A stretch of 63,986 bases of DNA, counting the filler, from an uncultured Ignavibacteriales bacterium (lineage in GTDB: Bacteria; Zixibacteria; MSB-5A5; GN15; JAAZOE01), in assembly GCA_964611355.1 (NCBI GenBank). It is 4 parts of 4 records of this genome, joined end to end, with 100 filler letters (N's around TTAATTAATTAA, not from the genome) between each part and the next. Parts side by side here need not be neighbours in the genome. Positions count along the whole stretch, not along the records: positions 1 to 20,481 come from CAZSYD010000040.1; 3 more parts are not named here. One strand, written 5' to 3'. Below, in pieces: positions 1 to 6,000 of this stretch (within the stretch, counting starts at the first letter, position 1; each line of letters starts with the position of its first letter). The position numbers are program-made.

Positions 1-3000
1 AAACCGACGGTCGGGTTAACCCGCTCATGCCGGCAATGGGTCCCAACGTCGCCGGGGTGATCGGCTCCGCCGTCGCCGCAGGCGTATTTTTGACGTTTTT
101 GGGGTAGGATAATTTCGCCGTGCGCGTGAATGTCCCCGACGCACATATAAGCATAATTATAAAGCCGGTGGATGTCATCGTCCGCCGGTTTTTCTTTTTT
201 GCGGAATTATTACTTGCAAAAAATGGTAGACAGATATAAATTGATTCTATCATATTGCACTGCAGGAGAATTCGGAGAATGGATTATATTAAGGAGACGC
301 GGCCCCAACCCGGAAAAGCGGGGATAGGTTGTTTTTCTTCGTTATTTGGATGTATTTTAGAGCAGCAATATGGCCTATAGGAATATATCACAATTAAAGT
401 CAAGAATTGTAACGATTCTTAACGCGCAGGGTTACGCTGTAGATAAAAAGGGACATTTCTCTTTAATACAGAACAGTAGAGAAACGCGCCGCCGGGTTCA
501 TGAATTGGCAAAAGCGGAAAGGATTAGGCCAAGAATTAGTTTTATCAAGCGTTTTTCGTCAGTAGTTGGCGCAAATATTCCAAATGGTAGCGATATTCAA
601 GTAGAGAAAATTGATCCATTACTCATTGAGATAAAGCCTGACTCGGACGAAGAGGAATATTTCCGTTGGTGGAACCTGGTATGGTGGAGTCTTCCATATG
701 AAAAAGCTTATGGCAGACAGATGAGATACATAATTTGGGATACTTATCACAATGCTGTTATTGGTTTGATCGGACTTCAGAGCCCAATCCTCAGATGGGG
801 CGTCCGCGATGATTACCTAAACATATCTTTGGAGCAAAGAGACTATTGGATAAATCAATCCTTAAGTGCCCAGCGTTTAGGGGCTGTGCCGCCCTATAAT
901 CAGATTTTGGGCGGAAAATTGGTCTCTCTACTCTTGACTAGTAATAATATTAGAGAAGATTTTCGAAAAAAATACTATAATAAAATGACTATTATGAATC
1001 GTCGCAAACTGCCTGCGCGATTGTTATTTATTACGACAACGGGAGCCTACGGTAAGAGTAGTATATATCAACGGCTAAAGTTTAAAGATGAAGTTGTAGC
1101 GAAATTTATAGGATATTCGCATGGCTCGGGCTCATTCCATATTTCTAACGAAATTTATGATGACTTATTGATGTATCTTGATCGTCGGGGATACAATATC
1201 AAAAGGGGATTCGGCGCAGGTCCTTCCCGTAAGTTACGACTTATTGACACGGCGCTTGGTTTACTGGGATTTAAAGATGGCGCTAAACATGGTATTTTGC
1301 GCGCAGTTTATCTGTTTCCTTTGGCCAAGAACCTAGATAATGTTATTCAGTTCAATAAGCAACCTGTATGGTTTGATAGACCAATTTCGGACTTAACATC
1401 TTTCTGGAAACAGAGATGGGCTATACCACGAGTCGAACGCGATACATCATTTAGAAACTTCAAAGCCTCAGAATTTTTCGACGATGTGGAACACGAATTA
1501 GAAAATATCTGCAATTCCAAAAACTGAGAGTGACGCATGGAAGGCCAAATCGAAAACAAGGGAAATTATGCCCATCTTCCTGAAGAGTTAATGTCGAAGA
1601 TTCTGGAATCGGTTCCTCAGACGGTTGACAAGATGAATAAGATGTTTGACGTTCAAGAAAAGCCATTAAAGCAGGCTATTGATAAGCTAAGAAAATTAGG
1701 AATGACTCAATTTATATCTTCTGATGATTATTCGACATCATTGATTGCGGTGGACGGTGGAATGGTAGTTGATCGGATGACAGGTTCGGATTTACTTTTA
1801 GCTGTTGCGGTTGGTGTCGAAGGGTTAAGTGAAGACCCGAAAGCCGGTTGGGGCATTGACAGAAATCAATATTATCAATGGCAGACGGTTTTACCGCACG
1901 AAGAAGCAACGCCTCGTTTGGCCCAGGGTATCATGTTTCTAATGGAGTTAAGTGTATTAGCTCAATCGGAACATGAAATAAGGATTATGGATGGTACTCA
2001 CTTCACACCGATCTTAAAAATAAACAGCATGCTATCAGCAAAAGAAGAAAATGCTGGTCCTGAATACATTCAGGCTCTGAGGGATTTTTTATCGGATACT
2101 TACGAAAAAATTATACCTGACATACCTGATATAATTGCTTCGGCATTTCAAAATATTGCGATAATCGCTATAGCCAAATACTCATCTTCACGTGATATTC
2201 TTGATCAATACGCGCACGATTTTAAAATATCGGTCGATGATAAAACGTTTTTTGCCCTTACGCTCGATGAGAATGAATACCTTAATCCGCTTCCTGTCGG
2301 GCAAAGTGAAAATGAGCGTAGAAAAATATGGAATGATCTACATATCAAATGTAATCTTGAGATACCTGAAAAAGATGATTTGAATAATGCCCTGGAAAAG
2401 GCAGTCTATCCTTTAATTACTAAAAACAAAATGTCAGAACTACATTTTACGTATTTTAAGCCTTACGCCGATGGCCCCGCTTATCGCATTGAATTAAAAA
2501 AAGCCCTTGCAGAGAATAAAGATGATTTTGAAAAAACCCTCTTAAGTCTGAAAAAGCAGGTTGTTTTTCCCGAAATTCGCGAACCATACCCACAATATTT
2601 AGTTGATTTGATGGCCAAAAGCGTAGCGTCCGGTTTATACGCGATTCAAGAGGGTATAAAATTATCTCCTAATTTGGAATTGGATAAAGGGAGATTTAAT
2701 CTTATTTTTGGTTATAGGACAAAATAGCTATGTCTCAAGAAATTGATATCCTAAAAGTTATTGAAGATGATGAAGGCAAGATACTTGGTATTACAGGATC
2801 GCCAAGCACGACTATTGATATAACAATAGATATTAAGGAAGAAAGCAAATTAGGTCGTATTTTAGGCCAAATGGTCCATTTTGTGGTAGAAGAGGAAGAA
2901 AATCCTATATTAGTAATCGGTCAAGTTATATCAATTGAAACACAGAATCGTTGGCACCAGGATCCCACATTCAAAGGGGTTATACGGTTACATGGCAACC

Positions 3001-6000
3001 TGCCCCATTTAAGCGGTCGAGCCGATAATCGTGTTGCGACAATAAGTGTTCAAGCAGCTTATTCTGTAAAAAAGGAAACCAATGCTCAAGGACATGTCCT
3101 TGGAACATCACCTTCCACTGGTCTCCCCGTAAAGAAAATGTCAAATCCATTAATGAGTGCACTCATGAGACCGCATGAAAAGTATATAACTTATATGGGG
3201 CATGTTTACGGTACTGACGTAAATCTCCCTTTTTGGTTTAGGCATTTTGATAAGGGAGATGGGGGTGCTGGAGATGCCCACCACATAGGTGTTTTCGGCA
3301 AAACCGGGTCAGGAAAGTCAGTCACCGCAGCCTATATGCTACTTGGTTATGCAAAGAATAAAGAAAACATGAATATTTTGGTCTTGGATCCACAGGCACA
3401 GTTCTATTATGAAAAGGACTTCCCACCACTGCTTAAGATGAAGAATATGATTGAAAAGTGCGGCATGACGTATATAAAATACCACCTCCTTCAGGAGCTA
3501 TATTTGCCGGGAGATGAACATGAGCTCTTTGCATCAATGTTACAGAAAAACCGCTTTATCCAAAAAGCTTTTAATATCAAAAGCGATAGAGAGCTTGATG
3601 CGGGATTGGCAGTTGCCGAATATTTAGCCTCACGTTTCGAGAAGAGCAGAGGTTCTGCGGCAAATATGAATCGGCTTGATCGAACGACCAGCAAGAAATT
3701 GATGACTGATTTGCTTAATCGTTTTGTTAAAACAGATTCAAACAGTGATTCTAATAAATATATTGATTCAATATATACTTCAAGACCGTACAAGAACAAA
3801 CTTATGGACCATATTTCACGGTTGATTAATGCGAAGGAAGAGGTCGATGCTCTTTTTTCAAATTACTGGCATCCGATCGTTAAATATTTTCAAAGCAAAT
3901 CGGATGATGGCGTGAATAAAAAACCGATTGACGAAGTGATAAATCTGATATCTGATAAAGATCATAAGGGAAATATCGTTATCTTGGATATCAGTGGCGA
4001 ACAAGAGCGATTAGGTAGTGAAAATGTTAAGGCTCTTTTCGTCCGCTTGATCGAAGGACGAATAAAGGAAGTAGGGCAACGGTACTATGCCGAAGGGCAA
4101 AAGGTAAATTGTTTGATCGTGATGGATGAAGCACATCGATATATTTCACGAACTGCCGATGATCCACAGATTCAGGCGTTAACTCACGAGATAATCGATT
4201 CCGTTAGAACTACTCGAAAATTTGGCATCGGCTATATGTTCATTACTCAGACAATCGAGTCGCTCGATAAAGAGATCTTGCAGCAAACCCGGATATTTGC
4301 TTTTGGATATGGACTCACACTGGGTACGGAGATGAGGGTGATAGGCAATATCGTAAACAACGATAGCGCAATGAAATTGTACAGATCATTCATTGATCCG
4401 GGTGCGAATAATAGGTACCCGTTTATGTTCTATGGATCGGTATCGCCTTTGTCATTTACAGGTGCTCCTCTCTTCTTGGAGGTTTATACAAATCCCGGAG
4501 ATTTTCGTTAAATTCCTCTATTATCTCCGAGCTGTATATTACCAACTCGCCAGTCCATCATTTTCCCTTCTGAGAAATAGGATTCAATATCAAGGCGGCC
4601 TCCAATTCCCCCACACTTTCACCACAAAACCACCCCTGATTCCTGACCCGCTCGCATTTATAGACAACCATATTCTATAGGTATATCTATGTCGGTAAGT
4701 GAACGCAAGCTCAAGGCCAAAAGCCGGAATCAATCCGGCGAAAAGACCAAAAATGAAATGGGGCCCCCAAAATAATGACAAAACGAACCCAAATCACGAC
4801 CTCTATCCTGTGGCCTGCAATAAGTTCCCGTAAGTTGCGTTTTCAGCGGCGCACGGAAACAACCTTTAACCCTGAATTTCGAATTTCAGATATTTATTTT
4901 ATCCGCTTCGAAAATCTGAGCCACGAGAAGGTAAAAATTACCGCACTGAAGATTATCATTGCAAGGATTTCAGGATAAAGGGCGTCAACGCCGGAACCTT
5001 TCATCATGATGCCACGGACGATTTTCATGAAATATCGCAGCGGGTTGAGATATGTGATATACTGCACCAGCTCCGGCATGTTTTCGATCGGCGTGAAAAA
5101 GCCGGAAGTCAAAATAGCGAAGATGGAAAAAAACCAGGCAAAAAACATCGCCTGCTGCTGCGTGCCCGTTACCGTCGAGATAAACATCCCCACGCCCAGC
5201 GCGGTGAACAGATAGATAAACGAAAGACTATAGAGCAGCGTCCACGAACCGGCAAACGGAATGTCAAACCATAAGATACCGAAAGCCAGCGCGATCGACA
5301 TCTCGACAAAACCAAGAATGGCAAACGGGATGGTTTTCCCCAGGATAAAGGCCGGGGTGGAAATCGGCGTAACCATCAACTGTTCCAGCGTTCCCACTTC
5401 GCGTTCGCGCACAATCCCCATTGAAGTCAGCATGGCCGTAATCATAGTCAGAAGAACGGCCACTATCCCCGGGACCATGTAGTAAACCGATTCACCTTCC
5501 GGGTTATAAAGGATTTTCTGCCGCATCGAAACAGGCCTTTCAACACCGGCGATGCGCTGGTTGAACTGCCCGGTTATCAGGCCGGCGTAACCGATGGCGA
5601 TGGCCGCCGAGTTGGCGTTGGTGGCGTCAACGATGAATCCGGCTTTGACCGACTTACCTTCTTCGAGCTTCTCCGAAAAATCCTCCGGGATAATCAGGGC
5701 GGTATTATAACGATTTTCGGTAAATCCCCGCTCAACCTCCGGAAGCGGAATATCGCTTGACCGGCAGACGAAATAATCCCCGGCCGAGAGCGAACGAACG
5801 AATTCGCGGGACAGTTGACTGCGGTCATAATCATAGACTGCGGTATAAATCTGCTTCACATCGACATTAATGGCGTATCCCAGTATCAGAAGCTGGATGA
5901 TCGGCATGAGAAAAATAAGGCTCAGCATTATGCGGTCGCGGAAAACCTGCAGGAATTCTTTTTTGACCAGCGCCAGTACCGTTCGCATTCTTACTTACCC

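Follow-up and report, generated by a model that had tools for sequence, protein, structure and literature searches.

What does DruA do where it is encoded away from the other Druantia genes and directly ahead of a NurA nuclease and a HerA translocase? To our knowledge, the role of DruA has been open ever since Druantia was named. The question arises at the left end of the window, by which we mean the whole stretch of DNA that was analysed (63,986 nucleotides, filler included), where the first-pass annotation had placed the three genes at 370..4511 and had read them as an anti-phage system separate from Druantia. The ORF coordinates proved exact, and the PADLOC and Pfam matches behind the three gene names could be reproduced. 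The ORFs are co-directional, at 370-1527 (385 aa), 1537-2727 (396 aa) and 2730-4511 (593 aa), with a gap of 9 bases between druA and nurA and of 2 bases between nurA and herA; the latter two are adjacent and probably translationally coupled. Because the ORFs lie only 9 and 2 bases apart and a terminator stands ahead of them, the trio forms one unit of its own. The features of the locus are as follows.

3..107, + strand: 3' end of a host gene for the oxaloacetate decarboxylase beta subunit, a 5'-open ORF that forms the left border and lies outside the cassette.
161..192, + strand: intrinsic terminator of the upstream host gene, in which 7 of the 14 stem pairs are G-C, the loop has 4 nt and a T-run is present.
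200..4893, no strand assigned: low-GC island with the cassette, bordered by host oadB on one side and by a convergent ABC-2 transporter gene on the other.
227..256, + strand: promoter-like site before druA (TAGACA, 18-nt spacer, CATATT; 9 of 12 consensus matches).
370..1527, + strand: DruA (DUF4338), a GNAT-fold acyltransferase (Pfam PF14236, 2e-64; PADLOC PDLC00002, 1.5e-88).
1537..2727, + strand: NurA-family RNase H-like nuclease (Pfam NurA, 25.0 bits against a cut-off of 21, and a fold match).
2730..4511, + strand: HerA/FtsK-type hexameric translocase ATPase (Pfam DUF87, 47.1 bits against a cut-off of 23.2, and PADLOC HerA models).

The identity of the first protein is clear from its scores: the match to Pfam PF14236 reaches 218 bits, and the match to PDLC00002, the DruA1 model of PADLOC, extends over residues 7-377. 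DruA is laid out as an extra N-terminal domain (about residues 1-75), a GNAT part and C-terminal helices, and its structure model has a pLDDT of 86.4. In a structural search, all 50 matches listed were GNAT-fold acyltransferases (Z 9.2-11.1), matched by residues 78-336, an assignment of DUF4338 that agrees with passages of PMC10853773. Across the DruAs of all gene contexts, including that of a true Druantia I locus (L038), 33 residues are invariant, and the DruA of the window keeps all 33.

For the second protein, a PADLOC search gave no match and the Pfam call was weak, and this call is now backed by the fold match to a solved NurA. The AlphaFold model (pLDDT 71) matched Sulfolobus NurA (2ygk) with Z 17.1 and rmsd 4.1 over 244 aligned residues (Foldseek 1.7e-9), followed by the proteins of T. 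kodakarensis (Z 11.6) and D. radiodurans (10.0), TdpB (9.7) and TM1739 (9.1). These top five matches are all NurA or NurA-like, and the next one falls to Z 5.2. Five residues (D73, E137, D152, H155 and D357) do not vary among 23 homologues, the model around D357 having a pLDDT below 50; judging from strand position and from the RNase H-type tetrad, they may correspond to the known NurA active site. Overall, NurA is the best conserved of the three proteins, with 52-73% identity across phyla. The third protein matches PADLOC HerA models down to 4e-16 and has intact motifs (Walker A GKTGSGKS at 190, Walker B LIVMDE at 462). Its nearest solved sequences are 8xau, the HerA of the DUF4297-HerA defence complex (7e-6), Sulfolobus HerA (4d2i) and TdpA (8wet, 1.2e-3).

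Since the contig ends shortly before druA, the first-pass annotation had cautioned that upstream partners could be missing. This concern is settled. Contig C76 overlaps the start of the window by exactly 55 bases, and the ORF at 3..107 is the continuation of the gene at C76:7071-8146. The orthologue of this gene in a relative (G143, L133:5623-6750) is an OAD beta subunit (PF03977 OAD_beta, 4e-151), with 94% identity over 33 aa. The join puts oadA/oadB, the housekeeping genes of oxaloacetate decarboxylase, directly upstream of the cassette. Because these genes and a strong terminator, one of only two terminator-like sites in 1-5200, sit there, the operon begins with druA. The promoter-like site before druA is a weak call, since such sites are no commoner in the region than in shuffled sequence (10 found, 14.4 expected). 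The GC content of the island is 0.399, compared with 0.553 for positions 1-199, 0.504 for the ABC-2 genes and 0.50 genome-wide. At the matching flanks, G143 carries genes for a peptidase S41, an outer-membrane beta-barrel protein and a metallophosphoesterase instead of the trio.

How does this operon relate to Druantia itself? In both the trio and Druantia type I, DruA is the first gene before an ATP-driven DNA motor with a nuclease. However, the motor and nuclease of the trio are NurA-HerA and not the giant DruE helicase, which in Druantia I has roughly 1,800 residues, and neither the operon nor its flanks (oadA/oadB, ABC-2) contain DruB, DruC, DruD or DruE. Neither gene after DruA matches the PADLOC models of DruB, DruC or DruD, the upstream genes are housekeeping ones, and PF09369/MZB, the marker of DruE, was not found anywhere in the 96.4%-complete assembly. 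The same tools returned DruE1 at E = 0 at the true Druantia I locus L038. A truncated Druantia is rejected on three grounds: what lies upstream is settled, DruE is missing from the genome, and the trio recurs without a conserved fourth gene.

The recurrence of the trio can be quantified. With a NurA identity of 51% or more as the limit, DruA is present in 23 of 23 genome loci, directly upstream in 22 and inverted after HerA in L014; HerA is present in 22, and the contig of the 23rd ends inside NurA. Four more distant genome loci have the same gene order, and the trio is found in 27 of the 34 genome loci overall, with no conserved fourth gene. No further gene cluster is shared among the trio genome loci outside one syntenic Nitrospirales group. 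Of the metagenome loci (n = 80), 55 carry the trio, 8 have DruA and NurA and then the contig end, and 6 are cut after DruA. With the flank resolved, no DruE in the genome and recurrence in both sets of loci, the trio is a separate module, as had been proposed. The proposal of a role for DruA outside Druantia likewise holds within the window's phylum, where DruA occurs in 16 of 285 genomes and stands beside a DUF87 HerA in 6 of these 16, whereas canonical Druantia I is found in 1. The NurA family of the window occurs in 4 of the 285 genomes and is beside DruA in all 4.

According to record titles, the trio NurA is spread over Zixiibacteriota, Omnitrophus, Patescibacteria groups, Proteobacteria, Segetibacter, Nitrospirales, Bdellovibrionales and Brocadiales. 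In Nitrospirales, the trio is retained in seven genomes at 68-98% identity; in four of these it occupies one syntenic site, a pattern that looks like stable vertical inheritance. Distant NurA relatives without DruA were found at six Armatimonadota loci and on a Rhizobium megaplasmid. Full-text literature searches yielded no description of the DruA-NurA-HerA trio. Immunity built around HerA is already known, as is DNA resection by NurA-HerA; a fixed partnership of both with the DruA of Druantia was not described in the literature searched.

The anti-phage role claimed by the first-pass annotation was upheld in part: the support is circumstantial, consisting of the low-GC island, the patchy distribution, the spread across phyla and the neighbouring genes. 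Genes of restriction-modification, toxin-antitoxin or Shedu systems, recombinase/transposase genes or prophage genes lie at most five genes away in 14 of 26 trio loci (annotations read by eye). HsdR is directly upstream of the trio in L003, EcoRV with a methylase is near it in L006, SduA is near it in L010, and an Eco57I-type methylase is directly downstream in L027 and L035. Of the metagenome neighbours, 53 were picked by size, and among them genes for type I, III and ISP restriction-modification, OLD, Schlafen and SIR2_2 are found repeatedly. On balance, we favour the reading that the trio is a stand-alone, horizontally transferred module against invading DNA (phages, plasmids). It is the gene context that points to defence, and foreign DNA would be the target. 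HerA would act as an ATP-driven ring translocase with NurA as the nuclease mounted on the ring, and the two may thread and degrade DNA like the solved NurA-HerA and TdpAB machines. DruA, as a GNAT acyltransferase, would give this motor its specificity or control by acting on either a nucleic acid (a DNA mark, as with the structurally similar Mom) or a protein, and the three proteins presumably work as one complex. Several observations speak against this reading: the loci that have no defence gene nearby, the stable Nitrospirales copies, the distant NurA relatives that lack DruA, and the failure to find the NurA family in viral contigs or phage records.

Two known groups of systems help to place this candidate defence module. 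TdpABC, a phosphorothioate-based system of thermophiles, likewise has three genes, namely a modification enzyme, the HerA-like ring TdpA and the NurA-like nuclease TdpB. By contrast, the first gene of the trio encodes a GNAT protein and not the phosphorothioate-forming TdpC, the island holds no further gene, and the similarity of the trio to TdpA/TdpB is remote. The account of tdpABC in sections of PMC12914056 is that of one modification gene with a HerA-like/NurA-like restriction pair, a precedent for the reading favoured here. Sir2-HerA and DUF4297-HerA are also HerA-centred anti-phage modules, and the solved sequence closest to the trio HerA comes from DUF4297-HerA (8xau). Nevertheless, the partners of HerA in the trio are NurA and DruA, not Sir2 or DUF4297, and the NCBIfam anti-phage HerA models give only 20-28 bits against cut-offs of 800-850.

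The chemistry of DruA admits a more specific version of the defence reading. Mom of phage Mu, a Gly-tRNA-dependent DNA adenine modifier, is the top structural match of DruA (8bv8_B, Z 11.1, rmsd 3.6, 170 aligned residues), and Mom has a GNAT fold into which a helical element is inserted; ordinary acetyltransferases lie within Z 1 of this match, so that it is a tie. On the other hand, DruA has extra N- and C-terminal parts, and its sequence shows no significant relation to Mom: none of 22 trio DruAs matches the Pfam Mom model (PF25680) at E <= 1, and hhalign of DruA against Mu Mom gives E = 0.2. Two transposase-linked DruA-domain proteins reach 25 bits with the Pfam Mom model, just under the cut-off of 27.1. 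A term search of the Mom paper (PMC13219725) found no mention of DruA. It is conceivable, though unlikely, that DruA works in the manner of Mom, as a nucleic-acid acyl- or aminoacyl-transferase placing a non-methyl mark on host DNA, and that NurA-HerA shreds DNA lacking the mark. If true, this would amount to restriction-modification by means of GNAT chemistry, and it would explain why one DruA heads both Druantia type I and several ATPase-nuclease modules, and hence the role of DruA in Druantia. The Mom-like fold makes DNA modification by DruA a directly testable guess. In one genome (G243), druA carries two TAA stops and nurA and herA are open, which argues against DruA as an indispensable self-protecting modifier, unless the whole G243 copy is decaying.

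The same GNAT fold could serve a quite different purpose, although we regard this as distinctly improbable. In abortive infection, NurA-HerA would sense or process the ends of invading DNA; the effector would be DruA, acting as a GNAT toxin that acylates a protein or charged tRNA and thereby halts the infected cell. The structural matches of DruA do include a GNAT toxin (7byy, 'bacterial toxin', Z 9.2), and the DUF4338/GNAT domain of DndF is read as a possible secondary effector on proteins in a part of a 2024 NAR paper (PMC10853773). Portions of the published accounts of the solved Sir2-HerA and DUF4297-HerA complexes also present the partner of HerA as the effector. However, the cassette already contains a dedicated nuclease effector, and no antitoxin-like partner is conserved with the trio among the loci compared. 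DruA is moreover the first gene and heads quite different modules, a pattern more easily reconciled with a front-end function common to them than with a terminal toxin.

Could the operon instead perform housekeeping repair of DNA double-strand breaks, that is, ordinary bacterial NurA-HerA end resection of the kind seen in Deinococcus and archaea, assisted by an accessory acetyltransferase? The trio shares with those repair complexes a HerA-type ATPase, adjacent genes and the fold of NurA, whose matches include the complexes of Sulfolobus, T. kodakarensis and D. radiodurans (Z 17.1, 11.6 and 10.0). Several Nitrospirales stably retain the trio at one locus, and about half of the genome loci lie among housekeeping genes without a defence neighbour (e.g. 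L005, L007, L013, L023). Yet the sequence similarity is marginal: the NCBIfam repair models (NurA_Sulf, helicase_HerA, HerA_Thermprot) give 21-32 bits against cut-offs of 400-970. The trio also differs in its obligatory DruA and in its accessory-island distribution, being confined to 4 of 285 genomes of the phylum, absent from the matching site in G143 where both flanks are kept, set in a 10-point GC trough and more than 50% identical across unrelated phyla. Archaeal NurA-HerA operons are linked with mre11/rad50, but neither gene was found in the operon of the window or among the conserved trio neighbours. We consider repair very improbable.

We give little credence to a role in the DNA processing, transfer or maintenance of a mobile element rather than in host defence: HerA weakly matches the conjugation ATPases VirB4, TraC and CedD, L011 and L015 have serine recombinases directly beside the trio, L003 and L028 have Mu-type transposases near it, and DruA domains are found with transposases elsewhere, but among the loci compared conservation of the trio does not extend to any recombinase, transposase or replication gene, the island of the window contains none, no direct or inverted repeats were found around this island, and the NurA family was not found in 2.9 million viral contigs or 50,697 phage records and gave a single distant relative (25.5% identity) in 72,556 plasmids.

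If the trio is indeed a defence system, immunity has taken over a classical repair motor and gains a family that occurs commonly in little-studied lineages (Patescibacteria groups, Nitrospirales, Omnitrophus, Zixiibacteriota). It would also offer a three-gene setting for working out DruA, the five-gene Druantia I being much harder to handle.

Beside NurA-HerA, DruA also heads modules with DruB-E, with a kinase and Orc/Cdc6, with an SMC-like ATPase and with Sacsin/NOV_C. DruA domains are further fused to transposases, as in an IS66-DruA fusion (L041), or lie beside them, with DDE_Tnp_1_assoc in L042 and L043. The occurrence of DruA before the kinase-Orc/Cdc6, SMC-like and Sacsin-type modules, together with the transposase fusions, suggests a portable function. 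Finally, some expanded variants of type 2 contain an inserted SMC-like AAA_23 ATPase.

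The cassette lies on contig C40 (positions 1-20,481) of an assembly of 2.57 Mb in 110 contigs that is 96.4% complete. Its three genes are co-directional and separated by gaps of only 9 and 2 bases:

370-1527, DruA (DUF4338)
1537-2727, NurA nuclease
2730-4511, HerA/DUF87 ATPase

The family assignments of the first-pass annotation were reproduced for all three proteins. DruA matched the PADLOC model PDLC00002 at 1.5e-88 over residues 7-377 and Pfam DruA at 218 bits, while HerA matched PADLOC HerA models at up to 4e-16 and Pfam DUF87 at 47.1 bits (cut-off 23.2). HerA carries the motifs GKTGSGKS (Walker A, at 190) and LIVMDE (Walker B, at 462), and the solved sequences nearest to it are the HerA of DUF4297-HerA, Sulfolobus HerA and TdpA. 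NurA scored 25.0 bits on its Pfam model (cut-off 21) and had no match in PADLOC-DB 2.0.0, which includes no model for this component.

The fold search agreed with the Pfam call. The AlphaFold model of NurA (pLDDT 71), built from 23 homologues and of low quality at both termini, was compared with 48,161 PDB representatives. Sulfolobus NurA (2ygk) came first, with a Z of 17.1 and an rmsd of 4.1 over 244 residues, followed by T. kodakarensis NurA (Z 11.6), D. radiodurans NurA (Z 10.0), TdpB (Z 9.7) and TM1739 (Z 9.1). All of these top five rows are NurA or NurA-like, and the sixth was down at Z 5.2. Foldseek agreed (1.7e-9), and the modelled fold thus indicates that the weak Pfam call is real. 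Five residues were invariant in the alignment (D73, E137, D152, H155 and D357) and are tentatively equated here with the RNase H-type catalytic set. The alignment profile of NurA had no match among PDB sequences. A complex prediction for NurA with DruA (alignments A1 and A3), run without controls, scored 0.00 against a mark of 0.32 and carries no weight for or against a contact.

The GC content was 38-40% in the trio genes, 55% in bases 1-199, 50% in the ABC-2 transporter genes that follow and 50% in the whole genome. A separate dip, to 0.38 at 11501-12000, adjoins a run of 100 N's inside contig C40 (window 11891-11990). On the left, a 5'-open ORF stops at base 107. Only two sites in 5.2 kb look like terminators, and one of them, with a 14-pair stem, lies behind this ORF at 161-192. 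Another contig of the same assembly, C76, ends in the very 55 bases with which the window begins, and the reading frame runs on over the join. The gene that crosses it and the gene before are orthologues of the beta and alpha subunits of oxaloacetate decarboxylase. From the terminator and this join, DruA is the first gene of its own unit, with housekeeping neighbours upstream. The first-pass annotation had cautioned that operon partners could be missing beyond the contig end; the overlap supplies this flank, without missing partners, and settles the matter. An overlap of 55 bases could in principle be a repeat junction, a worry that is countered by the relative genome G143, which also has this gene, with a matching C-terminus (94% over 33 aa), beside the same ABC-2 genes. 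Between the shared flanks, G143 lacks the trio and carries genes of normal GC for a peptidase S41, an outer-membrane beta-barrel protein and a metallophosphoesterase; the genome of the window has no close counterpart of these three. The island is flanked by neither direct nor inverted repeats, and a recognisable integration scar was therefore dropped as a candidate. The absence of DruE was likewise borne out: its marker PF09369 is missing from the window's assembly, and the same search was positive in 8 of 14 control genomes.

Relatives of NurA numbered 533 at E <= 1e-3 in a 90%-clustered collection. The best 120 of the 533 were 63-76% identical, counting the window protein itself, which came first; the few named sources spanned several phyla. 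In a 50%-clustered library, 351 clusters were matched at E <= 1e-3 and 34 at E <= 1e-30. With the NurA alignment, a scan limited to a single genome of each species gave 34 loci, against whose ORFs the window's three proteins were searched by BLAST. Wherever NurA was 52-73% identical (23 loci), DruA was present (48-61% identical), directly upstream of NurA in 22 and, in L014, inverted and after HerA. HerA (43-61% identical) was found in 22 of these 23, and the remaining contig stops inside NurA. Gene order was also kept in four more distant loci (30-36% identity, Chloroflexi-type titles). Six Armatimonadota loci had a NurA relative (30-33% identical) without DruA, five of them also without HerA; one locus begins at NurA and cannot be judged. 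Clustering of all neighbouring ORFs gave no further common family except within the syntenic Nitrospirales group. The same genes recurred with no extra family shared, which makes the trio a recurrent, self-contained cassette. A metagenome scan with the DruA alignment gave 595 confirmed matches; the best 80 of these were kept, which biases the sample to trio-type DruA and makes it no unbiased census of contexts. Among these best 80, all three genes were present in 55 (54 by script, plus L053, where the ORF picker had merged DruA), DruA and NurA were followed by the contig end in 8, the contig ended right after DruA in 6, and DruA occurred without NurA, mostly with room downstream, in 11.

Within the window's phylum, 285 genomes were covered: 16 carry DruA and four the trio-type NurA family, with NurA adjoining DruA in all four. 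In one of these four (G243; L047:6867-8000, G243:C15), druA contains two TAA stops while the frames of the adjacent nurA and herA are open. With the hits in G081 and G116 left out of the context analysis, 6 of the 16 DruA genes adjoin HerA and one lies in Druantia, a canonical Druantia I (L038: DruA, a 973-aa protein, DruD and DruE1). In two loci, L037:1371-11731 and L040:6776-11779, the neighbours of DruA are a DUF87 HerA and a protein of ~390-415 aa without annotation, whose gene (389-414 aa) is the middle or first one. The first of these lies between HsdR/DarG and a GmrSD-type (HEC-05) gene, and its DruA is the best match to the PADLOC DruA1 model (1.9e-177), above the true Druantia I copy; in the second, a PNP_UDP_1 phosphorylase follows. 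DruA adjoins a 353-aa unknown in L039, and L044 is a short contig with no clear context. The NurA profile showed no significant hhalign match to the unannotated middle genes of L037, L040 and L039. A second recurrent DruA-headed module, without HerA, consists of DruA, a Ser/Thr-kinase-Orc/Cdc6 ATPase (~850 aa) and then one or two proteins of ~350-390 aa without annotation (L036:9384-14083, L074:9001-14920 and L092:118-4912). In the copy from the window's phylum (L036), the kinase-ATPase is accompanied by a CARF6-like protein, and PADLOC CARF6-type models match the first two partner genes. Four further copies are transposase-linked or transposase-fused (L041-L043 and L048), with the DruA-type GNAT domain fused to an IS66-family transposase (808 aa) in L041:2216-4642 and joined to DDE_Tnp_1_assoc in L042:695-1609 and L043:943-2040.

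The DruA model, a confident one (pLDDT 86.4), has a GNAT fold at residues 78-336. This call rests on the VIA-align search, in which all 50 rows listed were GNAT-fold acyltransferases (Z 9.2-11.1), since Foldseek alone fell short of E 0.001 (best 6e-3). The alignment profile gave nothing useful against PDB sequences (one match, E 0.96), and the ESM Atlas offered a weak lead, GNAT-phage-like at 0.82. The fold agrees with the single published statement found, which describes DUF4338 as a GNAT domain, fused to some DndF, and reads it in that setting as a possible protein-directed secondary effector (PMC10853773). Phage Mu Mom (8bv8_B) was the first row, with a Z of 11.1 and an rmsd of 3.6 over 170 aligned residues, and many other GNATs lay within one Z unit of it. 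Mom transfers glycine from Gly-tRNA to adenine in dsDNA and has a GNAT fold with a helical insertion; a term search of the paper describing it gave no mention of DruA (PMC13219725). Little connects DruA and Mom at the sequence level: when the DruA profile was compared with Mu Mom by hhalign, the match fell short of significance (E 0.2), Pfam Mom matched 0 of 22 trio DruAs, and two transposase-linked DruA-domain proteins reached 25 bits against a cut-off of 27.1. Thirty-three residues, including GAxPPY (G171-Y176; GAVPPY in the window protein) and K183, are invariant over DruAs of every context, suggesting that the biochemical activity of DruA is probably the same everywhere.

Pfam models were run on as many as five neighbours to either side of the genome loci, 267 proteins in all. 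By our reading, at least one such neighbour is a defence, toxin-antitoxin or mobile gene in 14 of 26 trio loci:

L003, HsdR directly upstream
L006, EcoRV and a D12 methylase
L009:13133-20259, an AAA_15 ATPase, methylases and a ResIII helicase near the trio, HerA being followed by an N6_N4 methylase, a DUF4145 protein and the ResIII helicase
L010, Shedu SduA
L011 and L015, serine recombinases
L016, REase-ARP
L014, L019, L020, L022 and L028, PIN, HicB or Panacea modules
L027:12837-16037 and L035:12819-16085 (two distant trio loci), an Eco57I/MmeI-type N6-adenine methyltransferase of ~1,070-1,090 aa immediately after HerA; L035 comes right after phage tail genes

Among 53 metagenome neighbours, a non-random set picked by size and position, type I, type III and type ISP restriction-modification genes recurred, as did a PLD-SNF2 protein with an Eco57I methylase and OLD, Schlafen-type and SIR2_2 genes. 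We lean towards reading the trio as a stand-alone defence module. Against this reading, the other 12 of the 26 loci have housekeeping or unannotated neighbours only, the copies in Nitrospirales are syntenic, 68-98% identical and apparently stable in vertical descent, and no transfer vehicle was found in viral contigs (35 pattern matches to the NurA alignment, none confirmed), phage records (no NurA match) or plasmids. The plasmid collection held one remote NurA relative, on a Rhizobium leguminosarum megaplasmid (L134:3557-10874), where genes for a Rep3-like protein, a 387-aa unknown, NurA (Pfam 26.9 bits), HerA and a GHKL-type ATPase run in one direction. This is a different module, with no DruA by tblastn, and provides a relative of the NurA-HerA pair from a cultured host. 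The trio might instead serve the life cycle of a mobile element, but no recombinase or replication gene is conserved with it. Housekeeping repair is disfavoured by the patchy distribution and spread across phyla, the GC trough at the window's island, the absence of the trio from the same site in G143, and scores far under the curated cut-offs of repair equivalogs.

In a defence module of this kind, by homology to solved complexes, the HerA ring translocase and the NurA nuclease would form a machine that threads and degrades DNA, to which DruA would supply control or discrimination. This role for DruA is suggested by its position and by its heading several unrelated ATPase or nuclease modules: apart from the inverted copy in L014, druA is always encoded first, and it often overlaps or nearly touches nurA. 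A nucleic-acid modifier and a protein-directed regulator or sensor are about equally plausible, with a smaller share left to a toxin effector. The closest architectural precedent, tdpABC, combines one modification gene with a HerA-like and NurA-like pair and favours DruA as a modifier. An indispensable protective mark made by DruA is disfavoured, because in G243 the broken druA stands beside intact nurA-herA. According to the abstract of a preprint, a phage anti-Druantia I protein acts by altering m6A marks on phage DNA (10.1101/2024.04.14.589459), which is compatible with modification-sensitive discrimination in DruA-headed systems and gives no evidence on DruA's own activity. Searches of main texts, in a set with few subscription-journal papers, gave no description of a DruA-NurA-HerA system. 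The trio is predicted to be a HerA-centred defence outside Druantia, the repair NurA-HerA family and TdpABC, since it lacks at least one of the tested defining features of each.

Several loci showed rearranged or expanded forms. Ribosomal protein genes L2 and S19 are normally adjacent. In L014:3697-16646 (a Kaiserbacteria-titled MAG), the trio lies between them with other cargo, a 1,118-aa LCAT-domain protein and a Panacea-domain antitoxin. Either the ribosomal operon has taken up ~11.7 kb here or the contig is misassembled. The metagenome loci formed two clades, type 1 being window-like and type 2 having a NurA only 21-28% identical. Expanded type 2 cassettes (L091:7685-16811, L076:9001-15145 and L100:2121-8095) have the order DruA, SMC-like AAA_23 ATPase (711 aa), a 176-177-aa protein and NurA. 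A DndB-like protein follows NurA in L091 and L076; HerA comes after the DndB-like gene in L091 and directly after NurA in L100, and L076 stops before HerA. In L097:9001-13259 and L086:633-4760, the product of the gene after DruA, ~1,000-1,045 aa long, combines a Sacsin (HSP90-like) with a NOV_C domain; in L097 this gene lies between DruA and NurA-HerA. On the metagenome contig L081:1528-11625, the same DruA and the two small ORFs preceding it occur twice, ~10 kb apart, which may reflect a tandem duplication or an assembly that ran past the end of a circular element.
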